Shown in pieces: positions 2,489-54,841 of a DNA stretch of 64,000 nucleotides. The notes under the pieces are model-generated. The model did no database searches. It worked only from the letters and a program-made list of their open reading frames with translations, and was not told where the DNA came from. How positions within the stretch are numbered: position 1 is the stretch's first letter; the number at the start of each line of letters is the position of its first letter. The DNA is taken from positions 32,001 to 96,000 of IMG/VR virus record IMGVR_UViG_3300017989_000071. One strand, written 5' to 3'. The translations under genes and the position numbers were made by a program. This stretch comes from a virus.

Positions 2489-3103
2489 CTACTTCCCAAC
2501 CCCGAGATGTTCGGCGACGATCCCCGCAAGCGCATCCGCGACGACCTGCTCCTTCGGTCGTTTATCGAAGAAGCTGATGTACTCCAAATGCTTCTCGGCC
2601 TTCGGGGAAAGGACCAGACCTTGCGTCTGCTCACGAGCGCACAGCACGCAGGTCTCCTCACGGGTTTCCGGATGCCGGAAGGCCACCCACCCCTGCGACT
2701 CGCTGCGGTGATAACGCAGATGATGAAACGAATGCTTACCGTGGCGGCAGCATTCCGCTTTCGCCCAAAACAGCTCCAAGTCGGGGGAGATGCCGTACTC
2801 TTCGTAGATCGCCGCAATCGTCTCGGCGTCTATCATCCCCGCCTTTTCACGGCTATCCCCGGCCACCTCCCGCAGACAGAAAACGCACATCCGAGCACTC
2901 AGGTAGTAAACCGAACGCTCGCCGAAACGATGCGACTCATCGTCGCAAGGAATATCGTAGACCAGCTTCGTCCCCTTCTTGACCCAATCGAGCTCGGGGG
3001 GATACTCACTCCGGCGGATCACCTCCTCGCTCATCGGCTGCGACTTGGGGATCGCTTTCCCCTTCGGGTTCGTCCGTAACGGTGTCGGTTTCGCTGTCTC
3101 CAT
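2489..3103 (-). CDS. hypothetical protein
   Basis: 204-aa ORF with Cys pairs, packed in operon. Confidence 0.55.
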   Translation of the reverse strand: METAKPTPLRTNPKGKAIPKSQPMSEEVIRRSEYPPELDWVKKGTKLVYDIPCDDESHRFGERSVYYLSARMCVFCLREVAGDSREKAGMIDAETIAAIYEEYGISPDLELFWAKAECCRHGKHSFHHLRYHRSESQGWVAFRHPETREETCVLCAREQTQGLVLSPKAEKHLEYISFFDKRPKEQVVADALAGIVAEHLGVGK

Positions 3104-3443
3104 TTTTCGGTTCCTTCTTGCAAGTCATGTGTAACGTGAATGGTTCCACGGTCTCGATCCCACTGTCCTTGACCGAGACCGGGTACATCGAATCAGGGTC
3201 GATCCATTCCCGGATCAGCAGCTCCCGGATGCACGAGGGCCGCCCGCATGTCGTATACTCCAGACCACCGGAACGCCGAAGAACCACCCGGTTACCGGAT
3301 GCGAGGATCGGCATCCCACAGATTTCGCACCGCTCGGGACAGAGAGCCATTTTCAGCGTCTCCAACCACCTCAGAAGGCTCCGAGGTAGGGCCAAGCCCT
3401 CCGGACCGCTCACGGCCCCGCTCCTTTGCGATTTTGGGGTCAT
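3006..3443 (-). CDS. hypothetical protein (CxxC)
   Basis: Start re-called at MTPKSQ (ATGA overlap); CEICG motif. Confidence 0.4.
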   Translation of the reverse strand: MTPKSQRSGAVSGPEGLALPRSLLRWLETLKMALCPERCEICGMPILASGNRVVLRRSGGLEYTTCGRPSCIRELLIREWIDPDSMYPVSVKDSGIETVEPFTLHMTCKKEPKNGDSETDTVTDEPEGESDPQVAADERGGDPPE

Positions 3444-3894: not shown

Positions 3895-4554
3895 CTATCC
3901 GTATGCGTAGCCATCGATTTTAATGTGGACCAGCGGAATGTGGTGAAGCCGGTGATCGTCGATCTTGAAAATTCGCCCACAAGGTTCGATGCTCCCCGTC
4001 GGAAGACCCGACAGCAGCGAATCGTTCACCGGCCAGACCTCGCAACCGATGCACCCCTGATGAAGCTCCCCAAGTCCGGGAAGCAAGGGGAACGGCCCGA
4101 AGACGCCGACACAACGAACCCCCAGCGGAGATTGGTGGTCTTCCGTGGGGTCCGAATTGTGTATCGCGATCCCGGCAAACGTGGTATGCTCCACACCGCG
4201 CCAGTAAGGCACATACGCCCCGGTCCCGATATAGCGACCGACGAGGTTCCCCTGAAAAATCTGAACACCCTCGCGGACGTAACCCGAGGAGTGCGACCCC
4301 GCTTCCCACTTCCGCTCCTGACCGGCCTTCGCCGGTTCGGGCATGAACACCGCATCGGGGTCCATCGGCCCGTTGACCAGCTCCGTTTCGAGTAGACATC
4401 GGTTGGAAGGAATCGGGAGGCGTTCGTGATTGTTGCCCTGTATCGTATGTATCGTACCGCACTTGAACTGGCGACCGAACAGGCGCGAGGCCACCGCCAC
4501 TCCCGCACCGCACAGCGGGCATCGCTCGGAAGGTTGATCGTCGAAAGGATTCAT
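3895..4554 (-). CDS. hypothetical protein
   Basis: AAGGAG SD; directly downstream of promoter 4590-4617. Confidence 0.5.
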   Translation of the reverse strand: MNPFDDQPSERCPLCGAGVAVASRLFGRQFKCGTIHTIQGNNHERLPIPSNRCLLETELVNGPMDPDAVFMPEPAKAGQERKWEAGSHSSGYVREGVQIFQGNLVGRYIGTGAYVPYWRGVEHTTFAGIAIHNSDPTEDHQSPLGVRCVGVFGPFPLLPGLGELHQGCIGCEVWPVNDSLLSGLPTGSIEPCGRIFKIDDHRLHHIPLVHIKIDGYAYG

Positions 4555-4589
4555 TGCAAGGCTCCTTCGTTGTTGAAAAACGTACTCCT

Positions 4590-4617
4590 ATTATACACCG
4601 ATTCAAGTACGTGTCAA
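4590..4617 (-). promoter_or_regulatory. sigma70-type promoter, shared CGTACT class
   Basis: TTGACA-CGTACTTGAATCGGTG-TATAAT (16-nt spacer). Confidence 0.75.
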
Positions 4618-13269: not shown

Positions 13270-13312
13270 GCGTTTTCCCTTCTAGGCGCAAGGTTCCAAT
13301 CGTCACGCAGGT

Positions 13313-13342
13313 ACTATAGCAAACACCGTAGTACGATGTCAA
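13313..13342 (-). promoter_or_regulatory. sigma70-type promoter, shared class
   Basis: TTGACA-TCGTACTACGGTGTTTGC-TATAGT. Confidence 0.7.
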
Positions 13343-17142: not shown

Positions 17143-19069
17143 CCGGATCGGGACGCTCCTCGATCAGGCCGGGGTCGGGACCGGAAACCTGCACCGTAGG
17201 AACCGCCGACGGTTTCAACGCAGCGGCGGCCTCGGGAGAATTGAGTGCGCTGAATACACAGCCACACAACGCATCGGAAACATCCTTCGATTTCGTCGGC
17301 GGATGATCCACCTTCACCTTCTTCAGGTTTCCGGTAAAGAACCGCTCCAGACTCGATAACTCATCGAGCAGCACATCGTGCTTCGGATACTCGATACGCA
17401 ATTCGAGGATCGCCTGCTTCAGCGTCTCGTAGGGGTCCATCGTCCGGTCCACGCTTTGCAGGGACGTATTAAAACCCTCCTTCGCCAACTTCTGCAACGA
17501 ATGCGCCGATTGAAAACCATCGTAGGTCACAAGTTGAATCGGCAACCCCGAGTCGCGAAGGTAGTGAATGAACTCGATGATCCGGTCGTAGTCGATCTCG
17601 GCATACTGCGTGTTTACAACCCGCGCCACGAAATCGACGTGAACCCGATAATCTCGGGTATCGTACTTATGGCCGTACTGGTCGTACCGTGTCACCGTAC
17701 TTACATCGCTTAGGCAGCAACACGCGATTCCCGCCGCATCGTTGTTCAGCGCAAGGTCCACGTGAATAAACCTCAACGACATCGGGTGGTCACGAACCGC
17801 CCACCGATCCCTCACCTTGTCCCGCAGAACGAATACCTCGTTCCGCTTGAAGTCGAGAATCAAATTATTCTTGTCGTCGTCCGTCCCGAGCAACACCGTC
17901 GGGTGAGTAAACGGATTCTGCCGAACTTCTGAAACGCACCCTTGAATCCGATCCCGCCGATAGATGTACGAATTATACCCGTAGGTCGATACCCCACCGA
18001 TGTCGCGGATCGAACCCTCCAAATCAGACTCGAACAGCGGCCACAACGACACGGGCGGGCAAATCAACTGACAGTCTTCCGGAACCGACTGCGGCTTCCG
18101 TTTGTGCATCGAAGATCGCCGCGTCTGCGAACCGACCACCACATAAAACCGCCGCTCCTTCTTCAAGTCCTCCCGCACATCCCACAGCGAATAATCACTG
18201 ACATGGACATTCGCCTCGCCCTCGTGCTCCCGGCGGTGAGTGGTCAACCACGCCGATTCATCCCTCTTCTGCGACAACAGGCATAGTAAACCTCGGGGTC
18301 CGCCCTTCCCGTGAAAGCGCGAAACGATCCTGCCGCGCACCTCCTTGTAGGTCTCCTGAATCACCGGACCGGCGGCTCCCATCTTCGAGAAATTGGCCTC
18401 GTCCAACAGCCCCCCGTACACCGCCTGACCCAGCGCATGTGTCGCCGTACTCCCGACGGTGAAAACCAGATTCTTCGGAAGCTTTCCGTACCTCGCGTTC
18501 GGATGTCGTGTCATAATCCGCTTGAAGTACCGAGACCGCTGCATCGTCTCGCGTATCCGATGAAACGCCACCGAATCGGACAGGCGAATCGTGATATTGA
18601 AAAGTATAATTGCGATCTGGGTGTCCGGAGTAAGACCGAACATGTGCTGAGGATTGCGGATCATCGTCAGAGAATAGATTTTGTAGAGCTGCGCCACCAC
18701 CGCCGCCGTGGTCTTCCCGGTTCCAATCGCACCCTCGATGATCCACTCGCGGATGTCGTTCGCCGGGTCGCACACGTAGCGCAGCTCATCTCGCCAGATC
18801 GGCCAGATGTCGTCACGCATCCCCATATAATCGTCGCTCTCGATAAAAGTGTCGATGTCAACCGGCTTCGTTTCGTAGTCCTCCTCCCACGTGCTCGCCA
18901 GTAAGGGAGAATGCGCCTTCTCCTTCAACTCTTGTATGATATTGAGGATCAACTCACGCTCGGGGCGGGAGTACACGTCCAACACAGCAAGGTTCCCCCG
19001 CTCCAGCTCATCCCATATCGAGCGGATTCCAAGAGCAGTGTCCGGACTGAATTGCGCAGGAGCGAACAT
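17102..19069 (-). CDS. terL: terminase large subunit
   Basis: Walker A GAIGTGKT, Walker B LLDEAN, nuclease IHVDLA, VTYDGFQS, DHPPTKSKDVSDA. Confidence 0.92.
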   Translation of the reverse strand: MFAPAQFSPDTALGIRSIWDELERGNLAVLDVYSRPERELILNIIQELKEKAHSPLLASTWEEDYETKPVDIDTFIESDDYMGMRDDIWPIWRDELRYVCDPANDIREWIIEGAIGTGKTTAAVVAQLYKIYSLTMIRNPQHMFGLTPDTQIAIILFNITIRLSDSVAFHRIRETMQRSRYFKRIMTRHPNARYGKLPKNLVFTVGSTATHALGQAVYGGLLDEANFSKMGAAGPVIQETYKEVRGRIVSRFHGKGGPRGLLCLLSQKRDESAWLTTHRREHEGEANVHVSDYSLWDVREDLKKERRFYVVVGSQTRRSSMHKRKPQSVPEDCQLICPPVSLWPLFESDLEGSIRDIGGVSTYGYNSYIYRRDRIQGCVSEVRQNPFTHPTVLLGTDDDKNNLILDFKRNEVFVLRDKVRDRWAVRDHPMSLRFIHVDLALNNDAAGIACCCLSDVSTVTRYDQYGHKYDTRDYRVHVDFVARVVNTQYAEIDYDRIIEFIHYLRDSGLPIQLVTYDGFQSAHSLQKLAKEGFNTSLQSVDRTMDPYETLKQAILELRIEYPKHDVLLDELSSLERFFTGNLKKVKVDHPPTKSKDVSDALCGCVFSALNSPEAAAALKPSAVPTVQVSGPDPGLIEERPDPVVGQLQEVFSGQN

Positions 19070-30661: not shown

Positions 30662-31656
30662 TAGATCACCTGCCGTTGCATCAACTCAATCCCTGTTCGG
30701 AACGGATCGTAGTCAATCGCCTGATCGAGGTGCCGCTGCATCTCGGGTCCGAGGGATGAGGGGTCTTCGTTTTGGGGGAGAGTAACGAGACGGGCTTCGC
30801 GTTCGTGGGAGAAGAGAAACTGACAAATCTCGATGGATTGCTGCAACGCATCGGGATCGAGGGCCACAGAAAACTTAACATGTTTACCTAGTTGAAGAAG
30901 CATGTCGTACTGCTCCGCGCTGGCCCTGCTTCCGAGAATCGCCACCCCGTTCTTCCCGGTCGAGATCGCATCGAACACCCCTTCCGTTATCACCACGTGA
31001 TCGAACTTCGCCCGGCGCACCCGGTCGTAGTTGTAAACCCATCTCGATTTCCGGCTGTCGATTGGGAACTCGTACTTCCGATACTGACGAGGATTCCGGT
31101 TGACGAGATCGAGCATTTCGAGGGTGTAGGCCCGCGCCACCCAAATCCGCAGCTCGTCCTCCCCCAACACCCGCTCGTAGTCCGGGCAAACGATTCGGCC
31201 CCGGAGATCGCCCAGCCCGTCACCGAGGCCGTACCACTCCGCAATCTCCGGGGTCACCCCGCGCTTCGCGAGGTAGAATCGAATCTCCCCTTCCCAGCGA
31301 ATCGGTCGAATCATCTCCGGCTCCGGGCAGTACGCCGGTCCGCTCTCCTCCTCCTCCTCGGCGAGCTGGCCGAAACGCAGCGTCCGGATCGTCCGCGCCA
31401 TCGAGTCCTCCCAACCGACCAGTGAAGGCTTATCCGGGTCTACCCCGATCAGGAAATACAGATAAGTCAACGTCCCCGCCGCCTTACAGCGTTGACAGAT
31501 AAACATGCGCTTCCGGGTGTTGTAGTAGAGATGGTACTTCGTATCGGGCGACTTCTTCCCGTTCCGTAGACAGACCGGGCAGCAGAAACGAACTTCGTTT
31601 CTCGGGGCATTCAGCGGCGTCCCGAGACGACCAATTAGATTCGCCGGGACTACCAT
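30661..31656 (-). CDS. DNA primase (Zn finger plus TOPRIM)
   Basis: CPVC...CQRC; VITEGVFDA; VALDPD. Confidence 0.85.
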   Translation of the reverse strand: MVVPANLIGRLGTPLNAPRNEVRFCCPVCLRNGKKSPDTKYHLYYNTRKRMFICQRCKAAGTLTYLYFLIGVDPDKPSLVGWEDSMARTIRTLRFGQLAEEEEESGPAYCPEPEMIRPIRWEGEIRFYLAKRGVTPEIAEWYGLGDGLGDLRGRIVCPDYERVLGEDELRIWVARAYTLEMLDLVNRNPRQYRKYEFPIDSRKSRWVYNYDRVRRAKFDHVVITEGVFDAISTGKNGVAILGSRASAEQYDMLLQLGKHVKFSVALDPDALQQSIEICQFLFSHEREARLVTLPQNEDPSSLGPEMQRHLDQAIDYDPFRTGIELMQRQVI

Positions 31657-31703
31657 CGCTCACCTGTTTGTATCATGCAAGGTTCCGTGTCTTCCGTAAC
31701 ACA

Positions 31704-31745
31704 GGCGACCCACCGCCGAACGAGGAGTAAGTACGATGGGCCGCC
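31704..31745 (-). ncRNA. leader stem-loop displaying anti-RBS CUCCUCGUUC (candidate antisense RNA)
   Basis: 12-bp stem GGCGGCCCAUCG/CGGUGGGUCGCC (two G.U pairs that work only on the minus strand) and 18-nt loop UACUUACUCCUCGUUCGG. Confidence 0.6.
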
Positions 31746-33709: not shown

Positions 33710-33738
33710 ATGATAATATCTTTCGAGTACGTTGTCAA
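33710..33738 (-). promoter_or_regulatory. early promoter, shared class
   Basis: TTGACA-ACGTACTCGAAAGATAT-TATCAT. Confidence 0.8.
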
Positions 33739-34992: not shown

Positions 34993-35021
34993 ATTATATT
35001 ACCTTTCGAGTACGATGTCAA
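34993..35021 (-). promoter_or_regulatory. early promoter, shared class
   Basis: TTGACA-TCGTACTCGAAAGGTAA-TATAAT. Confidence 0.85.
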
Positions 35022-35141: not shown

Positions 35142-36470
35142 CTATTCTGCCTCGCCCTCGTCCTTGCGCGTCGCATCTTCGAGAATCGAGGCCCGTTTGT
35201 AATCGGAGCGCGTATACACGCGGTACTGGCTCTCTGCGCGACGGAACTTGTCAACCCAGATGTATTCTTTATTTACTGTAAGAATTATGTCGGCCTTGTT
35301 TGTCTTCTGCGAACTGTTGGCGACGTTGAACTGGCTGAGCTGCACCTTCCTCGGATTTCCGTACAAGGTCTTGCGGCTGATCTGACTCGGAGCGATCACG
35401 ACCGCCTTGACCTCCTTCGCCAAGTCCATCAAGGAATCGTAAATCTCCCCCATCGTCGAATACATCTGCTCCCCGGTCCCGCCGCGAAGCTGATCGGGAT
35501 AGTCCACGACAACCATCGAAGGGGAGACATTGTACCGGGCCATCGCCGCCGTCACGTGAGATCGTATCTGCCCGAAGCGCGTCTTCCCCGGCGGAAACTC
35601 CTTGACCAATATCTGCTTCGACCCCAGACCCATCTCCTTGAACCGCTGCTCGTAGAGGGCAGACCCCTTCACGATCTCGTGCATCGCCACCCCCGACAAT
35701 TTCGAGGCATAACGCAGCAGCACATCGTGCTCGTTCAGATCGCCAATCGTGTAATGGAAGACCACCCCGTTACGCCGTGCCTCGAAAGCCGCGAGGTTCA
35801 CGGCCAGCATCGACTTCCCGCCACCGCTGAACCCGAGGATCACGACCAGCTCGCCCTTACCGAATCCTCCGTAGGATCGCTCGTTCAATGTGGGAAACGG
35901 AGTCAATACCCGGCCATCCGGGTTGTAGGAAGTCTGCCGCAGAATCTCCGGAAGGTCGGCCCCCACCTCGGACATCCGCGTCCCGATATTCGCCACGTCG
36001 TCCCCGACCCGACTCGCCGTCTGCAACCATTCGAGATAATCCGAAGCGTGGCTCCGCTCCTCGGGGGGCAGCATCAGCTCTTCGGCAATCCGGGCGACCG
36101 CCTCCCTCTCGGCGCAGTCCTTGGCGAACTGGATAACCTGCGTGCGGATATAGACTTCGTCGGTCAGGTCCGCTTTCGTGTAAGCGTAGTCGATCTCCTT
36201 GATCGCCCCCTCGATACTCTCGTTCGGCAACCCGTGCTGCCTTGCCCAACTCTCCAGCGCGACAACCATGCTGTCCCGCGTCGGAACCTGCCCGTGCTCG
36301 TCGTAGTGGTTGAGCGCGATACGAGCAAGGGGGACCAGCAGATCGTGCGCAAAATAGGCCGAGTCGATTGCATCGCGAAAGTGGACGAGAAACATCGGAT
36401 CGCGGACGATCAGGGCAAATATCTTGCGCTGGAATCCGAGACCGAACGGGTATTTTCCATGCCCCTCCAT
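35142..36470 (-). CDS. DnaB-like replicative helicase
   Basis: GELVVILGFSGGGKS, MVVVDYPD, APSQ, ADIILTVN; start re-called at MEGHGK. Confidence 0.87.
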   Translation of the reverse strand: MEGHGKYPFGLGFQRKIFALIVRDPMFLVHFRDAIDSAYFAHDLLVPLARIALNHYDEHGQVPTRDSMVVALESWARQHGLPNESIEGAIKEIDYAYTKADLTDEVYIRTQVIQFAKDCAEREAVARIAEELMLPPEERSHASDYLEWLQTASRVGDDVANIGTRMSEVGADLPEILRQTSYNPDGRVLTPFPTLNERSYGGFGKGELVVILGFSGGGKSMLAVNLAAFEARRNGVVFHYTIGDLNEHDVLLRYASKLSGVAMHEIVKGSALYEQRFKEMGLGSKQILVKEFPPGKTRFGQIRSHVTAAMARYNVSPSMVVVDYPDQLRGGTGEQMYSTMGEIYDSLMDLAKEVKAVVIAPSQISRKTLYGNPRKVQLSQFNVANSSQKTNKADIILTVNKEYIWVDKFRRAESQYRVYTRSDYKRASILEDATRKDEGEAE

Positions 36471-36754
36471 CACCGGGGAACGAACTCGTCGCCAACCTGC
36501 GCGGCGTAGTAGTCCCGCCACGCCCGAATCTCAAGGCGATTCGAGGGGTGGGAAAGAAGACGCCGATAAGCCAGCCGGTCTAACTGAAATCCGACCGCTT
36601 CCTCCAGCTCGGCAACGGCCTCGTTGATGCCTCCCTCCTCATCGGGTACGAACTCCCCCGCCAGAGAACAATCGACCCGAATGGACTCGAACTCTCCGAT
36701 ATTGAGGGTCACCCCGGAAGACACACTGATCCTGTCGATGTTTACTTTGGGCAT
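36470..36754 (-). CDS. hypothetical protein
   Basis: GVTLNIGEFESIRVDC; TGATG coupling to helicase. Confidence 0.6.
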   Translation of the reverse strand: MPKVNIDRISVSSGVTLNIGEFESIRVDCSLAGEFVPDEEGGINEAVAELEEAVGFQLDRLAYRRLLSHPSNRLEIRAWRDYYAAQVGDEFVPR

Positions 36755-36786
36755 TGCAAGGCTCCCTTCACTGCTTTGTGTGTAAA

Positions 36787-39074: not shown

Positions 39075-39443
39075 TTACTTGTTGAACCAAACCACATGTG
39101 TCCATTCTCCCTTCGTCAACCACAGATCAGACGGGGCGAAGTGTACCGAAGACATCTCGCTCTCCGTAGCATACCTCCCACAGCCGTCATCGTCCGTAAA
39201 GGCTCCAAACTCGACCGCCTGCTCAAACTCCTCAATGGTCATGTGAACACCGCAGTCTGGCAACGGCTCCATCAACAAATCGACACGAAACATCTCCGGA
39301 TAGCGCACACGCATAACAGCCTCACGTAGAGCGTACTCACCGACAAACTCTTCGACTCGACGTTCATACTTCCCGATAAAGCTGCCAGTCAGAATCGACC
39401 GCGCTCCTTGACTCAATTCACCGTCTTTCATTGTATCCTCCAC
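39075..39443 (-). CDS. hypothetical protein
   Basis: TIEEFEQAVEFGAFTDDDGCGRYAT. Confidence 0.55.
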   Translation of the reverse strand: MEDTMKDGELSQGARSILTGSFIGKYERRVEEFVGEYALREAVMRVRYPEMFRVDLLMEPLPDCGVHMTIEEFEQAVEFGAFTDDDGCGRYATESEMSSVHFAPSDLWLTKGEWTHVVWFNK

Positions 39444-39645
39444 TCACTGCAAGATTCCTATCCCGTTCTGGCACGGTTCATGCTTCGCGTGTGTGCGCGT
39501 ACACGTGCGCGTAGTTATATTCCTACGTCTCATTCTCTGCGGTCCCCGACCGCCCGACCGACCCGACGAAGGAGGGAGGGCGGGAGGGGGTGGAGCGATA
39601 GCGGAACAGAGAGAGGGAAACTTGTTTCCCGCCCGCCCGCCCCGG

Positions 39646-39675: not shown

Positions 39676-41243
39676 TTCTCCCGTCTCCACCTCTTGCTGA
39701 CCTCTATTGGAACATTCATCGAGACACCCGTTACAGGTTCCACTTTCAGTTGCGCATCGCGATAGGTCTTCAACCGCTTCAACGACTGAGAGCGGAGAAC
39801 CCAATGCGTATTGTCTACGAAGTCGATAACGATGCAACGGTTACCAATCGAACTGCCTTCCTTCAGTCTCATCCCACGTCCGAGTCGCTGGAGGAGCTGG
39901 CGAGGGTGTTTTCCTCCCGCCGCATAGACAATCACATTGATGCCGGAGATGTCAACACCTTCATCGAGGAAGGGGGTGGCGATGGAGATCGAATTTTCGT
40001 TTATATGATTAACTAATTTTTCGAGCTCCCATTTTTCCTTGTGGATCGTTCCGTAGGAATTGACCAACACCTCCTTTGCCCCCTTGCACATGATCGCATC
40101 CTCGTACCCCTCGTCGATGAAGTGCTGGAGGAGCCGCCGACCGTGACGTTCGTGCTGGACGAAGATCACGACCGAGCAACCTTTGTCGTAGAAATTCTTC
40201 GCGGCGGATACGATAGCGAGGTTGCGGAGATGGTTCGAGCGGACCCCCTGCTCGTAGAGGATATGCCAGTCGCGGATTCCGGCAGCGAGCTTCAACGGCA
40301 CCTCGCCGGGGAGGGGAAGGTTGATCGCATCGATCTGGTAGGGGCGGATCACCGGCTCGGCGAGGATACCCCGCTGGATCAAAACCCACGAGGGCATCCG
40401 GTAGATGATCGGCCCGGTCATTCCCATGACCTGTAGCTCCTCCACGGTCGGGTTGTCCATATCGGCAAAGGGGGTGGCGGATAGTCCAAATCGGTATCCG
40501 GCGGGGCACAGCAGGCCCGCCTCACCCCACCCCGGAGCTTTCAGGTGGTGGGCCTCGTCCCAAATCACCCCGTTCTGGCGGCTCAGGAGGGCCGTGACAG
40601 CCTTCGAGCCTCGTTTGAGGCCCACGGTAAGGGTTCGGTCGATTGCGACCGTCACAGGGCGATCTGACTGCTTCAGACCCCCTCCGTAGCCCCCAATCTC
40701 CTCCTCGGAGAACCCCCGATCCCGGAATCGACCGAGGGTTTGATGGAGCAGTCGGTCGGTATTGACCACAAGGAGGACGTTGAAGGTCGGATATTGGATG
40801 AGATACCAGCGGACCATCGCAATCGCGATCTCCGTCTTCCCGGCCCCGGTTCCGGCCTGAATAATCCCTCGGCCCCGAGCGAGGGCCGTCTTGATCGCCC
40901 GGACCTGATAATCCCGCAGCGTCACCCCGGCGAGCTCCGGAACCTCGATCTGCCGGTAGTCGTTCGTCGGATCGTAATCCGGATGGTCCGGGTGCGGAGT
41001 CATTCGGACCTCGATCTTCTTCTCCTTCAGCAGCCGCTTCATCCGGGGGACCAGCCCCGACTGAAACCGTCCCTCGTCGTCGATCACGCAGACCTCGACC
41101 TTCTCCGGCTGCTTACCTCGCTCCTTCTGGACGAAGACGATGCCGGTGAATGCCTTCTCGGCCTGTTTGATCCCGCGCTGGGTGCCCCCCGTGATCCGGG
41201 AGAGCACCGGGCCGTACTCGACCTCGATCCAATCAATTCGCAT
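39672..41243 (-). CDS. UvsW-like SF2 helicase
   Basis: LRDYQ, GTGAGKT, IWDEAHH, GLSATP, DEGVDISG, QRLGRGMR. Confidence 0.9.
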   Translation of the reverse strand: MRIDWIEVEYGPVLSRITGGTQRGIKQAEKAFTGIVFVQKERGKQPEKVEVCVIDDEGRFQSGLVPRMKRLLKEKKIEVRMTPHPDHPDYDPTNDYRQIEVPELAGVTLRDYQVRAIKTALARGRGIIQAGTGAGKTEIAIAMVRWYLIQYPTFNVLLVVNTDRLLHQTLGRFRDRGFSEEEIGGYGGGLKQSDRPVTVAIDRTLTVGLKRGSKAVTALLSRQNGVIWDEAHHLKAPGWGEAGLLCPAGYRFGLSATPFADMDNPTVEELQVMGMTGPIIYRMPSWVLIQRGILAEPVIRPYQIDAINLPLPGEVPLKLAAGIRDWHILYEQGVRSNHLRNLAIVSAAKNFYDKGCSVVIFVQHERHGRRLLQHFIDEGYEDAIMCKGAKEVLVNSYGTIHKEKWELEKLVNHINENSISIATPFLDEGVDISGINVIVYAAGGKHPRQLLQRLGRGMRLKEGSSIGNRCIVIDFVDNTHWVLRSQSLKRLKTYRDAQLKVEPVTGVSMNVPIEVSKRWRREN

Positions 41244-42225
41244 TGGACACCTTCGCTTTCACCTCCTGAGCGAGCATGGTCGCACCGACAACCGCCCCCT
41301 GCTTCACATCGTCCCGGTGAGCCATCAGGATCGCCGAAACGAGCTGGAGCTTCGAGAGGAAGTTAGCCGCCACATCGCGGGCCTCCTCTTCGTACTCCCC
41401 TTTGTTGGACAGCAGATCGGACACCTGAGCCGGAGAAATCCCCGTTTCCGCATCGGCACCTATGATCTCGTTGATGGCCGTGTGCGCCTCGTTCAGGAGC
41501 TTGGCGGTAACAACCCCCAAGTCGTAGACCAGCTTGGCCCGTGTTACGTCGTCCGCCACATCGTCGATCCTCGACTCGTCAACCATCAGGTTCTCGTCGC
41601 ACGGGAGCGGCACGTGTACCGGAACATGGTTGCCGCCGGGGCAGATAATGTAGATGTAGGGGCTGGCCCCGTCCTTCGTCCTTGCCACCCCGAGCTGTCC
41701 CCCTTCAAGCAGCCCGTCAATCTGTTTGTGAACCTCTTCCCAAATTGCATCGGCGACCTCTTCCTCGCTGAGCACGCGGTCGTCCGATTCGTTCGTGGAA
41801 GAATCCTCCCCCTCCGACGAGGAGTGCAAGGTTCCGGAGGGAGAGGTAGAAGAACGCTTCGCCGCCTGTTGGGCGGTTTTATTCATGTAGTAACGATCCT
41901 TGTTGATCCAGACCCGACCGTCGCGGGCGAGGTAGTGGATGCCCTTGGCGTCCCGCCCGTAGTAAGTCGCCCCGTAGGACACGATCTCGATCTCGATTCC
42001 CCACAAACCCAGCCCGTGATCCGGCGTACCGGGAGCCTGCCAGAACAAGCCCTTCAGCCGTACCGCCTTCTTCGGGATTTTTCCAGCCTTCGTTTGGTTG
42101 AACGGCACTCGGCGGTAGAAGTGGGCGTAGCTTCCCCCGTCCTCATGGGTTTCCCACATGACGATGATGGAGGGGGCTTCGTTGAAGCGGTCCCCCCGGA
42201 ACGTAGTGTGTTTGGTAAAGGCCAT
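41233..42225 (-). CDS. two-domain hypothetical early protein
   Basis: ATG behind GAACGAGGAG; Ser-rich linker containing an RNA hairpin. Confidence 0.6.
   Translation of the reverse strand: MAFTKHTTFRGDRFNEAPSIIVMWETHEDGGSYAHFYRRVPFNQTKAGKIPKKAVRLKGLFWQAPGTPDHGLGLWGIEIEIVSYGATYYGRDAKGIHYLARDGRVWINKDRYYMNKTAQQAAKRSSTSPSGTLHSSSEGEDSSTNESDDRVLSEEEVADAIWEEVHKQIDGLLEGGQLGVARTKDGASPYIYIICPGGNHVPVHVPLPCDENLMVDESRIDDVADDVTRAKLVYDLGVVTAKLLNEAHTAINEIIGADAETGISPAQVSDLLSNKGEYEEEARDVAANFLSKLQLVSAILMAHRDDVKQGAVVGATMLAQEVKAKVSNAN
41806..41845 (-). ncRNA. intragenic stem-loop with 18-nt dual-motif loop
   Basis: 11-bp stem CUCUCCCUCCG/CGGAGGGGGAG; loop GAACCUUGCACUCCUCGU. Confidence 0.5.
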
Positions 42226-44116: not shown

Positions 44117-44152
44117 AATCATATTATAATATCATTCGAGTACGTTGTCAAG
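44117..44152 (-). repeat. 36-nt exact direct repeat (promoter unit), copy 1
   Basis: aatcatattataatatcattcgagtacgttgtcaag, identical to 45398-45433. Confidence 0.9.
44123..44151 (-). promoter_or_regulatory. early promoter, shared class
   Basis: TTGACA-ACGTACTCGAATGATAT-TATAAT. Confidence 0.88.
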
Positions 44153-44169: not shown

Positions 44170-44197
44170 AAAAAAGCCGGGGAAATCCCGGCTTTTT
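44170..44197. terminator. bidirectional intrinsic terminator
   Basis: aaaaaa-gccggg-gaaat-cccggc-ttttt. Confidence 0.85.
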
Positions 44198-44218
44198 CGG
44201 TATCACCTCCTTCCCCTG

Positions 44219-45397: not shown

Positions 45398-45433
45398 AAT
45401 CATATTATAATATCATTCGAGTACGTTGTCAAG
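45398..45433 (-). repeat. 36-nt exact direct repeat containing early promoter 45404-45432, copy 2
   Basis: Identical to 44117-44152. Confidence 0.9.
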
Positions 45434-46906: not shown

Positions 46907-46935
46907 ATGATAATACCTTTCGAGTACGATGTCAA
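46907..46935 (-). promoter_or_regulatory. early promoter, shared class
   Basis: TTGACA-TCGTACTCGAAAGGTAT-TATCAT. Confidence 0.82.
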
Positions 46936-46936
46936 G

Positions 46937-46964
46937 AAAAAAAAAGCCGGGGTCGATCCCCGGC
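46937..46964 (-). terminator. intrinsic terminator
   Basis: GCCGGGG/CCCCGGC stem followed by U9. Confidence 0.85.
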
Positions 46965-46969
46965 CTCTT

Positions 46970-47260
46970 CTACTTGAGATATTCGTCTGCGTACCGGGAC
47001 CAGTCCTCGTAGCTCAGGGTCTTGGCCCACCCCCGACAACCCTCCTCACTGGCCCATAGCCAATCGGCGAACTGGAAGGAGGTGGTGGCCGTCTGGTACT
47101 TGGCCCGGCTCTTCGAGATCACTTCGAGCTTCACCTTCTTCCTGCCGATGGCGATCACCTGACCGTGCCGGACCCGTGCGCCGTGGCGGGGGTCGTACCC
47201 CCCACCCACCCACCAGACCTTCAGGCCGGGGCGCACCTCTTGATTGTCTCTCGTCTGCAT
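46970..47260 (-). CDS. hypothetical protein (SH3/KOW-like)
   Basis: VRPGLKVWWV...GQVIAIGRKKVKLE. Confidence 0.55.
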   Translation of the reverse strand: MQTRDNQEVRPGLKVWWVGGGYDPRHGARVRHGQVIAIGRKKVKLEVISKSRAKYQTATTSFQFADWLWASEEGCRGWAKTLSYEDWSRYADEYLK

Positions 47261-47274
47261 CGTGGTCTACCTCC

Positions 47275-47598
47275 CTAGTTGTGCTTAATCGAGTACGTCA
47301 CCCGCTCGACGGTGAAACCGCTGTCCGGGTTGTTCGGATACTTCTTCTTCGTCTCCACCTTCCGGACGATCTTCATGCCCGGCTGGAAGTCGAACTCGTT
47401 CTCGTCCCGGTTGTGGGGCGACACTCGCGGCTCGACGTAGCCGCCCCCGAAACTGATCGTTACCGCCCAACGGTTAGCGAGCAACACGTGCTCCTCGCCG
47501 CGCCTCTCGATCCGGAACGGCCAGTCGTGTTTCCCGAGTAAGCGGGAGCCGCACAGCGGGTCGTTCAGGATCATCGTTTCGGTCTTGGGATTCTTCAT
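47275..47598 (-). CDS. hypothetical early protein
   Basis: ATG behind GAACGAGGAG. Confidence 0.6.
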   Translation of the reverse strand: MKNPKTETMILNDPLCGSRLLGKHDWPFRIERRGEEHVLLANRWAVTISFGGGYVEPRVSPHNRDENEFDFQPGMKIVRKVETKKKYPNNPDSGFTVERVTYSIKHN

Positions 47599-47632: not shown

Positions 47633-47661
47633 ATTATACCACGATTCGAGTACGATGTCAA
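47633..47661 (-). promoter_or_regulatory. early promoter, shared class, within an inverted repeat
   Basis: TTGACA-TCGTACTCGAATCGTGG-TATAAT; downstream CGAGTACCTGTCAA is its near mirror. Confidence 0.85.
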
Positions 47662-47664
47662 GCT

Positions 47665-47746
47665 AAAAAAAAAAGCCCGCCGACTTTGGGGAGCCGACGG
47701 GCTTTGTCTGTTCGTGCGGATGGGGTCCGCACCGGAACCTTGCACC
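47665..47746 (-). ncRNA. candidate small RNA of about 80 nt (promoter-seed-hairpin-terminator)
   Basis: 5' GGUGCAAGGUUCCG, hairpin GUGCGGA-CCCCA-UCCGCAC, terminator GCCCGUCGGCU-CCCCAA-AGUCGGCGGGC-U10; no AUG. Confidence 0.72.
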
Positions 47747-47750
47747 GAAT

Positions 47751-47779
47751 ATGATAATCCGATGCGTTTTCGTTGTCAA
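47751..47779 (-). promoter_or_regulatory. sigma70-type promoter of the candidate sRNA
   Basis: TTGACA-17 nt-TATCAT. Confidence 0.78.
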
Positions 47780-47786
47780 CTCAACG

Positions 47787-47819
47787 AGAGCGGCCCGGCG
47801 GGGTTACCGCCGGGCCGCT
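47787..47819 (-). terminator. perfect 14-bp hairpin, probable terminator or processing site
   Basis: GAGCGGCCCGGCGG-UAACC-CCGCCGGGCCGCUC; weak U tract. Confidence 0.5.
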
Positions 47820-47880
47820 CCCACGGGGGTTAATGGATTTTAGTCCATCAGGGGTCTTTCGAGCGGAATGTGGGAACCCG

Positions 47881-48696
47881 TCAGGCGGCGGCTTCTCCGA
47901 ACTCGTAAATCAGGCCGAGCCGCGTGAACAGCATCTTGCCGTAATTCGAGCTGGGAACGGCCACCCCCTCGAAGACGAAGGGCACCTGTGGACGTTTGCG
48001 GAGCTGGCTGAACCCGATGCCGATCTTCCCCATCGACACCTTCGATCCGATCTTGTCGAGCTTCCCGTTGCGGTCGAGGAGGGACACGTTCGAGCCGTCG
48101 CCGAAGACGGCGGCTTCCTGTCGGTAGTCTTTGACCAGCCCGGCGATCAGATCGCGGAAGTCGGCCACGTCCATCCCCTTCGGCATCGGCACCCACAAGC
48201 TGTCCTCCACCGAGTCGGTTACGATCCCCTGACGGATCGCTTCCGCCTTGGAAATCGTCTCCCCGGTCGGGAGGACAAACTTCGCATCCCCCTTGTCCGT
48301 GAGCTCGATGTCGATCACCCCGTCGGGTCCGTTCAGGACCAGCTTACCGAGCGAATCGTTCCACTCGTTCTTGTACGGGGGAACGCCCTCGATCCAGTGC
48401 CCGACCAACCGGGCCGCGCCCGCCTTCAGCGCGTTCAACCGCTGGATCAAATCGCGGTTCTGCCCGACGTTCGCCCTTCGCGAAACCGCCTTCCCGAACT
48501 CGTCGGTGTTTTTGAACGCCGTGAGGATCGCAAAGGGCTGTTTCGACTGGCGGAAGATGCGGGACAGGCTCGCCTCGTCGATTCGACCGAGGCAGGAACG
48601 AACATACTCGTTGTCGTCCTCGTTCGCCCCACGGATACGGGCCAACTCCTGCTCGATCTTTTCGTCCGCTTCGAGCAAGGTTCGTTTATCGGTCAT
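47881..48696 (-). CDS. DUF3293-related phage protein
   Basis: EASLSRIF...FAILTAFK...QNRDLIQRL...LVGHWIE. Confidence 0.55.
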   Translation of the reverse strand: MTDKRTLLEADEKIEQELARIRGANEDDNEYVRSCLGRIDEASLSRIFRQSKQPFAILTAFKNTDEFGKAVSRRANVGQNRDLIQRLNALKAGAARLVGHWIEGVPPYKNEWNDSLGKLVLNGPDGVIDIELTDKGDAKFVLPTGETISKAEAIRQGIVTDSVEDSLWVPMPKGMDVADFRDLIAGLVKDYRQEAAVFGDGSNVSLLDRNGKLDKIGSKVSMGKIGIGFSQLRKRPQVPFVFEGVAVPSSNYGKMLFTRLGLIYEFGEAAA

Positions 48697-54276: not shown

Positions 54277-54841
54277 GCAAGTCTCCGTTGAGCAAGGTTC
54301 CACGACCGCACGGAACGTCGTCACCCTCGATGGCGAAGAATACGTCGATGCGGCCCTCGGGACACGCTTTCGGATCGGCGGCGAGCTGACCCTTGCCGCC
54401 CGATAATATCACATATCCCTCGAAGACGGTAACCCATTCGTCCCGAAACCCTCGAACGAGGATCGCTCCGTTGGCATCGGCTACGAGATTTCCCTCGAAG
54501 TCGCAGGCGCGGAGCTGCATTTCCTTGTCTTTTCCGACCTCCAGATCGCCCCCAACTTTGATTTTGTAGAACGCACCCGGCTCCCACCGCTTCCATGCTC
54601 CATCCTCGTAGTACATCTCCCGGAGCAGAGAGATCAGCGAAGAGGTGGTAAATTCTCCTTCGGTCAGCGTCGGCGAGATCACGGACGGAAAGAGACGCTT
54701 CATATCGGCAAGCGAGTACGTCACCGATTTTTCGTCTTCTCCTAATGCGTACTTCGACGTACCGGGAGGGAGGGTCGCCACCGCAGAAGCAACCCGTCTC
54801 CCGGCCCGCCGAACAGTTTCTATACTAACTAACGGTCCCAT
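54089..54841 (-). CDS. hypothetical (probable virion) protein
   Basis: Coupled to 54841; the 3' ~190 nt overlap the endolysin gene. Confidence 0.5.
   Translation of the reverse strand: MGPLVSIETVRRAGRRVASAVATLPPGTSKYALGEDEKSVTYSLADMKRLFPSVISPTLTEGEFTTSSLISLLREMYYEDGAWKRWEPGAFYKIKVGGDLEVGKDKEMQLRACDFEGNLVADANGAILVRGFRDEWVTVFEGYVILSGGKGQLAADPKACPEGRIDVFFAIEGDDVPCGRGTLLNGDLHVQRKTRPDSSGRNNGCPFPVALQGGGNVGPAGFISAQGGSVASGVGMGNRGGRGPLPHRPR

Follow-up and report, generated by a model that had tools for sequence, protein, structure and literature searches.

A candidate trans-acting small RNA with several predicted targets in the genome of an uncultured T4-like phage

Base-pairing small RNAs (sRNAs) encoded by phages are already known (PMC12197685; bioRxiv 10.1101/2024.10.31.621285; 10.1101/2022.04.08.487710), and the locus described here is a new candidate member of this group. 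For the most part, the phage sRNAs that have been characterised are of temperate-phage or prophage origin, and their main targets are host genes (PMC12197685). Among them, PreS of lambda, VpdS of Vibrio phage VP882 and prophage DicF belong to temperate phages or prophages, were found experimentally and target mostly host mRNAs (PMC12197685; bioRxiv 10.1101/2024.10.31.621285). Like PreS (bioRxiv 10.1101/2024.10.31.621285), VpdS and DicF (PMC12197685), the candidate is a phage gene for a putative base-pairing RNA that would reprogram translation in infection. In contrast to these three, it is predicted only, it comes from an uncultured T4-like phage, and its clearest predicted targets are phage replication, lysis and early genes. 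The PLE-ICP1 sRNA (bioRxiv 10.1101/2022.04.08.487710) likewise uses one seed for several viral transcripts, but it is encoded by a satellite that conflicts with the phage, whereas the candidate sRNA and its predicted targets reside in one genome.

In its layout, the candidate resembles RybB, OmrA/B and MicC, the Hfq-dependent, trans-encoded sRNAs of enterobacteria, with which it shares its own promoter, a length within 70-100 nt, a seed at the extreme 5′ end, an internal hairpin, a long-U terminator and several predicted targets at or near the ribosome-binding site. It differs from them in that it is encoded by a virulent-type phage and that its predicted targets are the phage's own genes, and it has no sequence or Rfam relationship to them. 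The Type I 3′UTR-derived sRNAs MicL and DapZ are also comparable, as the candidate has a promoter of its own and closely follows a coding gene of the same orientation. MicL and DapZ share their terminator with the mRNA, and the terminator of the candidate may also end the upstream mRNA. Unlike their intragenic promoters, however, the promoter of the candidate is located after the stop codon and a separate hairpin.

The virus record contains 117,644 bases and is estimated to be 91% complete. The window, which is the whole stretch of 64,000 nucleotides that was analysed, corresponds to bases 32001-96000 of this record, and its positions are used below. The phage appears to be a very distant T4-type phage, because its portal protein is gp20-like, with the best match in Rhodothermus phage RM378 at 29% identity. 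The minus strand carries 147 of the 151 genes (codon-usage gene call). The GC content of the window is 58.4%, and the value of about 62% used in the initial annotation, which was made from the letters of the window, is therefore too high. Across the whole genome, there are 11 near-consensus promoters of the sigma-70 type, all on the minus strand and all within the window. Ten of them lead to an SD and an ORF, and the sole exception is the promoter of the candidate sRNA unit. The features of this unit and its immediate flanks are as follows.

47790-47830, minus strand: 14-bp G+C-rich hairpin without a U tract, 3′ of the upstream 271-aa gene (sequence)
47751-47779, minus strand: host sigma-70-type promoter TTGACA-17-TATCAT, 11 of 12 consensus positions
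47665-47745, minus strand: predicted small RNA of ~79-81 nt without AUG (fold and sequence)
47733-47745, minus strand: 5′ seed GUGCAAGGUUCCG, mostly unpaired (fold and complementarity)
47714-47732, minus strand: hairpin 1, 7-bp stem GUGCGGA/UCCGCAC, loop CCCCA (predicted fold)
47665-47705, minus strand: intrinsic terminator, 14-bp stem with an 11-bp G+C core, loop CCCCAA, U10 (predicted fold)
47633-47661, minus strand: perfect-consensus promoter of the next unit, gene 47275-47598 with ATG at 47598 (sequence)

With no SD, no AUG, and a promoter and terminator of its own, the unit reads as an ORF-less independent transcription unit. The RNA likely starts at G47745 or G47746 with the 5′ sequence GUGCAAGGUUCCGG. 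In the predicted fold, nucleotides 1-7 are unpaired and nucleotides 8-11 are found in a weak 4-bp hairpin extension, and opening nucleotides 1-12 is predicted to cost 2.5 kcal/mol. An A-rich linker connects hairpin 1 to the terminator, and the predicted fold of the complete RNA has an energy of -38 kcal/mol (z = -4.6). This anatomy agrees largely with the initial annotation. The TTGACA-17-TATCAT promoter is present on the minus strand with 11 of 12 consensus positions, the ORF-less RNA described as about 80 nt measures ~79 nt and has no AUG, and the 5′ end described as mostly unpaired is free at nucleotides 1-7 and followed by the 7-bp stem. The U10 tract of the terminator and the CCCCA loop of hairpin 1 are also as described, but the terminator stem has 14 bp rather than 11 bp, the latter being only its G+C core, and its loop reads CCCCAA rather than CCCCA. 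Because a perfect promoter lies between the unit and gene 47275-47598, the candidate sRNA is not merely the leader of this gene.

The Rfam search suggested in the initial annotation was run with Rfam 15, and no family reached its threshold over the unit. The best matches, sX13, Trp leader, anti-hemB and IstR among them, score 15-16 bits against thresholds of 41-50 (E 4-9). The Rfam matches of the hairpin at 47790-47830 are likewise weak and all below threshold; this hairpin may be the 3′ end of the 271-aa gene or an RNA stabiliser. No tRNA or tmRNA identity was detected for the candidate sRNA. A small peptide encoded by the unit was rejected, as there is no AUG and the GTG frame crosses both the terminator and the next promoter.

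The complement of the 5′ end of the candidate sRNA is GGAACCTTGC, which has five exact copies on the sense strand of the 117.6-kb genome. On the antisense strand, the only exact copy is the sRNA gene itself. The predicted sites complementary to the seed are as follows.

31676-31687, minus strand: predicted 12-nt site in the leader of the primase/replication operon, -31 to -20 from AUG 31656; duplex -24.2 kcal/mol
13286-13298, minus strand: predicted site in the helicase leader, immediately behind promoter 13342; duplex -23.1 kcal/mol
36755-36765, minus strand: predicted site GGAGCCUUGCA, spanning SD to AUG of the 94-aa gene 36470-36754; duplex -20.5 kcal/mol
4555-4565, minus strand: predicted site GGAGCCUUGCA, spanning SD to AUG of gene 3895-4554; duplex -20.3 kcal/mol
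54292-54302, minus strand: predicted site in the endolysin leader, -26 to -16 from AUG 54276; duplex -20.0 kcal/mol
39448-39458, minus strand: weaker predicted site GGAAUCUUGCA with one G.U, -27 to -17 from the AUG of gene 39075-39431; duplex -17.7 kcal/mol
48675-48684, minus strand: weak, poorly accessible predicted site CGAACCUUGC, +13 to +22 of the 271-aa gene; duplex about -16 to -17 kcal/mol
41824-41837, minus strand: longest match, 14 nt, inside coding sequence 41233-42225; duplex -27.8 kcal/mol
18987-18996, minus strand: 10-nt match inside terL, ~75 nt after the AUG, codons ~25-28 (sequence)

Every complementary site listed in the initial annotation (31676, 13288, 54292, 41824 and 18987) is present on the sense strand. 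The G.U-containing pairing from SD to start that it described at 4555-4565 and 36755-36765 is found as well, with GGAGCCUUGCA directly before the AUG in both cases. The match in the helicase leader (13288-13297) comprises 10 nt, or 12 nt with one G.U. Gene 3895-4554 is the first gene behind promoter 4617, and the 94-aa gene precedes a DnaB-like helicase. The endolysin has a second partial site, GGAGACUUGCA, that overlaps both SD and AUG. One-mismatch sense copies at 48675 and 39449 are both located beside start codons, the former in the 271-aa gene directly upstream of the candidate sRNA. Two of the five exact sites (terL and 41826) are located inside coding sequences, not leaders, a placement that makes regulation less expected, and the terL match at 18987-18996 is probably the least meaningful of all sites. 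The 14-nt match at 41824-41837, previously placed in a hairpin loop, indeed occupies the 16-nt loop of a 13-bp hairpin (z = -2.2) within the coding sequence, where it abuts the anti-RBS word CUCCUCGU.

Two further observations concern start regions. The primase leader contains an upstream ORF of 8 codons (31650-31676, minus strand), whose AUG (31676-31674) starts at the last base of the seed site; the stop codon of this ORF overlaps the primase start codon, so translational coupling between the two is possible. In the start region of gene 2489-3103 (2489-3124, minus strand), the palindrome CUUGCAAG precedes GGAACC. The two halves of the seed/site word are both there, in rearranged order, and the predicted duplex with the candidate sRNA is weak (-8.4 kcal/mol).

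A count of five is not rare by itself, because 255 different 10-mers have at least five copies on the sense strand owing to codon bias, and in this respect the raw argument of the initial annotation was too generous. The excess of GGAACCTTGC is real because the expectation for this particular word is only 0.12-0.37 copies in Markov models of order 1-5, compared to the 5 observed. In over-representation, GGAACCTTGC ranks 4th-7th among ~110,000 10-mers; the early ribosome-binding site AACGAGGAGA and the spacer conserved among promoters are the other recognisable words with a rank near the top. The hexamer CUUGCA has 14 copies on the sense strand, and 7 of these are in start regions, compared to 1.1 expected.

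To quantify pairing at start regions, the 14-nt seed was folded against the 147 predicted start regions from -40 to +25. A pairing energy of -20 kcal/mol or below was reached by five of them (primase, helicase, 36754, 4554 and endolysin), and one of about -17 kcal/mol by two more. With 300 shuffled seeds, the mean number of start regions at or below -20 kcal/mol is 0.24 and the maximum is 3; with 400 GC-matched genomic 14-mers, the means are 0.22 and 0.41 and the maximum is again 3. Sense-strand 10-mers complementary to a word in at least three start regions are found at 7 of 117,635 positions, the seed included, and five of the remaining six are anti-RBS words, one in the hairpin loop of the primase leader. 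The predicted opening energies are 2.5 kcal/mol for the seed and 3-8 kcal/mol for the leader sites, which leaves accessibility-corrected net energies of about -10 to -17 kcal/mol for the latter. The complementarity of the 5′ end to phage translation-start regions, as proposed before, therefore holds far beyond the shuffled, genomic and Markov nulls. By computation, the candidate has the accessible seed, matched to several start regions beyond chance, that characterises a trans-encoded sRNA. We note that the seed had been chosen in the initial annotation after its matches were seen and that the nulls give ~1e-3 to 1e-5, a significance that is less than overwhelming if every non-coding hairpin is treated as a test of its own. 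The C-rich CCCCA loops were considered as a second seed and rejected, as their partner UGGGG is depleted, not enriched, at start regions.

The distribution of the sites bears on the level at which they would act. Outside the sRNA gene, all five exact copies and all four one-mismatch copies in start regions are on the sense strand. Relative to the promoters, their positions vary between about +1 and +80, and the variants in start regions differ only by G.U-compatible changes or a terminal mismatch. The word CUCCUCGU is complementary to the ribosome-binding site that about a dozen early genes have in common, and it has only three copies on the sense strand, two intergenic and one in a coding sequence. 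Two copies are located in hairpin loops on the minus strand (within 31704-31745 and 41800-41862), and the third is outside the window, at about genome position 6218. Two of these three words are at most 41 nt from seed sites, compared to 0.025 expected. Action at the RNA level, rather than at the DNA level, is favoured by the strand bias, the variable promoter distance, the G.U-compatible variants, the 14-nt site in a hairpin loop and the proximity of CUCCUCGU.

On the sense strand of the genome, there are only four strong intergenic intrinsic terminators with at least six U. Three of them directly precede early promoters.

47665-47705, minus strand: terminator of the candidate sRNA, terminator/promoter junction 47674/47661
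46937-46967, minus strand: terminator, terminator/promoter junction 46945/46935
44170-44200, minus strand: terminator, terminator/promoter junction 44175/44151

The early region is therefore organised as terminator-then-promoter junctions. Six early promoters have the common spacer (T/A)CGTACTCGAA.

47633-47661, minus strand: spacer-sharing early promoter
46907-46935, minus strand: spacer-sharing early promoter
45404-45432, minus strand: spacer-sharing early promoter
44123-44151, minus strand: spacer-sharing early promoter
34993-35021, minus strand: spacer-sharing early promoter
33710-33738, minus strand: spacer-sharing early promoter

The ribosome-binding site GAACGAGGAGA is common to these six units. 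An inverted repeat across the -10 (e.g. CGTACTCG ... CGAGTAC) is found in several of the six promoters and in the looser promoters 13342 (13313-13342) and 4617 (4590-4617). The shared spacer and inverted repeat resemble an operator at which a dimeric protein would control a single early regulon. The operator-like spacer and palindrome are absent from the candidate sRNA promoter, promoter 48761 and promoter 31792.

We searched several collections for relatives of the unit and of its neighbours. The 1.1 kb of DNA around the unit has no match among 50,697 phage records. No relatives of the 271-aa protein, the portal or terL were found in viral contigs, nor of the 271-aa protein in metagenome contigs. 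Among 5.8 billion protein sequences, the 271-aa protein has only two matches (30-32% identity), the primase reaches 32% identity at best, and the 96-aa protein has no homologues. The best matches of the primase, the portal and the neighbouring protein are 28-36% identical. At loci found with a primase profile (23-34% identical), no promoter, ribosome-binding-site or seed motif was seen. The promoter-plus-seed pattern has 0 matches in viral contigs and 20 unrelated chance matches in metagenomes. For covariation of seed and sites, the phage, viral-contig, metagenome and protein searches contained no relatives that were close enough.

Taken as a whole, the data are best read as a trans-acting base-pairing sRNA, because the word excess and the start-region pairing far exceed the nulls. 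We consider this reading moderately probable, on the basis of statistics within this one genome. One alternative is that GGA(A/G)CCUUGC(A) is a protein site and that the copy in the sRNA unit is one more such site, inverted. The protein could act on RNA, as a start-region repressor or endonuclease like T4 RegA or RegB, or on DNA downstream of promoters. T4 employs protein regulators such as RegA and RegB, the phage studied here is T4-like, the copies cluster at start regions and behind four host-type promoters, and CUUGCA, enriched in start regions, could equally be a protein recognition word. However, the orientation bias is strong, with all exact copies outside the sRNA gene, and all one-mismatch copies in start regions, on the sense strand; a promoter distance of ~+1 to +80 is unlike that of an operator; and the conservation ends where RNA pairing ends. 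A protein that recognises this word in RNA would not recognise its complement in the candidate sRNA. A stand-alone unit with an exact 10-14-nt complement at its 5′ end would then be a coincidence (~6e-5 per position), and we regard a protein site as unlikely. Chance complementarity is also assumed if the unit is a functionless remnant, namely a cassette that lost its gene, or an insulator that ends the upstream operon. The early region consists of units joined terminator-then-promoter, and the unit could be a gene-less cassette because its terminator belongs to these recurring junctions. Read-through to the terminator at 47665-47705 is plausible because the hairpin of the upstream gene (47790-47830) has no U tract. 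Yet the target statistics oppose chance, the promoter spacer differs from that of the cassette promoters, the ribosome-binding-site leader of these cassettes is missing, and a strong, well-folded hairpin is present between seed and terminator, all of which makes a remnant or insulator quite unlikely in our view. The unit also lies directly upstream of gene 47275-47598 and in the same orientation, a GTG at 47745 shares the reading frame of this ORF, and a faint match to the Trp leader was obtained, which together would suit a cis-acting attenuator or leader. This Trp-leader match, however, has 16 bits against a threshold of 41 (E = 7), the RNA without AUG encodes no leader peptide, and the fold is a single dominant one with no competing antiterminator. 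In addition, a perfect consensus promoter with an extended -10 is located between terminator and gene, so the gene needs no read-through. With neither a dependence on read-through nor an antiterminator fold, an attenuator is very improbable.

A last alternative concerns a host RNA. When 185,579 species genomes were scanned for the promoter-plus-seed pattern, 20 loci were returned, and 13 matches in 10 of these loci represent one family in a few Anaerolineales genomes. The Anaerolineales RNA is a structured, stand-alone RNA of ~265 nt flanked by a consensus promoter and a terminator of its own, is present in three copies per genome and is absent from Rfam. Of its 89 predicted pairs, 13 have compensatory changes, and its neighbours are varied (GlyRS, PIN, baeRF). 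Its loci include the following.

L034, 4414-4710, plus strand: Anaerolineales RNA
L034, 5657-5952, plus strand: Anaerolineales RNA
L039, 1266-1563, plus strand: Anaerolineales RNA
L039, 3791-4088, minus strand: Anaerolineales RNA
L030, 257-558, plus strand: Anaerolineales RNA
L041, 1044-1339, minus strand: Anaerolineales RNA
L045, 6747-7040, plus strand: Anaerolineales RNA

The first 13 nt of this RNA are the first 13 nt of the phage RNA. They pair with its 3′ strand GG(A/G)(G/A)CCUUGC. This strand repeats the word of the phage sites and, in the form GGAGCCUUGCA, is identical to those at 4555 and 36755. The closing helix is invariant in 9 aligned copies, G.U changes aside, and the distance from the start to the -10 equals that of the phage unit. 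The candidate sRNA could mimic or attack this putative host RNA, by invading its closing helix or by competing for its binder, and this may add to pairing with phage mRNAs. We regard such an action as decidedly unlikely. By a rough estimate, ~6 chance matches are expected, so the 7 singletons and 1 family that were seen are no excess, and the 13-nt identity is compatible with chance. Two of the singletons (P-loop codons) also extend to 14 nt, whereas the likeness to the Anaerolineales RNA stops after 13 nt. Moreover, within the order the RNA was detected in 4 of 42 genomes only, a further 200 genomes from the class had none, and 20 kb of phage DNA gave no spacer-like match to the 42 genomes. 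Assigning the host to this order through such matches was rejected. A phage homologue of the whole Anaerolineales RNA was rejected as well, as only nucleotides 1-13 are shared and nhmmer and blastn returned nothing else in the phage. The same holds for a host regulon that uses the same word: in four Anaerolineales genomes, the word has 9-18 copies per 2.5-3 Mb on both strands, compared to 8-14 for controls. As it is not enriched there, the word excess is specific to this phage.

If the candidate is a trans-acting base-pairing sRNA, as we favour, host RNA polymerase would start at the near-consensus promoter and stop at the intrinsic terminator, producing an RNA of ~79 nt. Nucleotides 2-12 would form a largely single-stranded seed, and the hairpin together with the U10-tailed terminator would provide the usual stabilising, chaperone-binding layout. 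The seed would pair with GGA(A/G)(C/U)CUUGC(A) sites in the phage's own mRNAs, as the statistics suggest. Because pairing would reach from the SD to the AUG at 3895-4554 and 36470-36754, a block of ribosome binding is expected there. In the leaders of primase, helicase, endolysin and 39075-39431, the duplex would lie 16-31 nt upstream of the AUG, where it might either impede loading of the 30S subunit or make the start region slightly more open. The initial annotation had proposed activation by opening of SD-sequestering stems, which our calculations hardly favour, as blocking the sites shifts the cost of opening the RBS by only about -3 to +2 kcal/mol. In silico, blocking the upstream site lowers this cost by 1-3 kcal/mol for endolysin and 39431 and hardly alters it for the helicase; for the primase, the sign of the change depends on the length of downstream sequence folded. 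Four sites are located at the first gene behind host-type promoters (31792, 13342, 4617 and, weakly, 48761), so the RNA would tune one subset of the units transcribed by host polymerase. This subset would be distinct from the six units with the operator-like promoter and the GAACGAGGAGA ribosome-binding site. Of the proposed sRNA with multiple targets, the anatomy and the start-region complementarity thus stand, while the regulatory logic, including a role in timing replication, packaging and lysis, is speculative.

Two genes downstream of the candidate sRNA, an orphan 96-aa gene (46970-47260, minus strand) matches PF24203 (Phage_ProQ_C_like) with E = 0.005 and 17.9 bits, for a cutoff of 27. 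Its single-sequence model has a pLDDT of 41 and is unusable. A neighbouring ProQ-like chaperone was rejected in view of the sub-threshold match and the unusable model, and no RNA chaperone was identified. The sequences would also allow an RNA-only switch, in which seed binding beside the CUCCUCGU loops (in the replication-operon leader and at 41824) times their silencing of early translation. In this scheme, which we find decidedly improbable, the seed/site pair was copied from the closing helix of a lineage-specific host RNA, and the candidate sRNA would also invade or mimic that host RNA.

The candidate would offer a compact test case, which consists of a single RNA of 79 nt with a defined seed of 11 nt, and of five to seven short leaders. 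As the promoters are host-type and the ribosome-binding sites standard, the RNA could probably be studied in a surrogate host, with no need for phage culture. If the proposed reading is true, large lytic phages would also run post-transcriptional regulons, through one 5′ seed that acts over replication, lysis and early genes.
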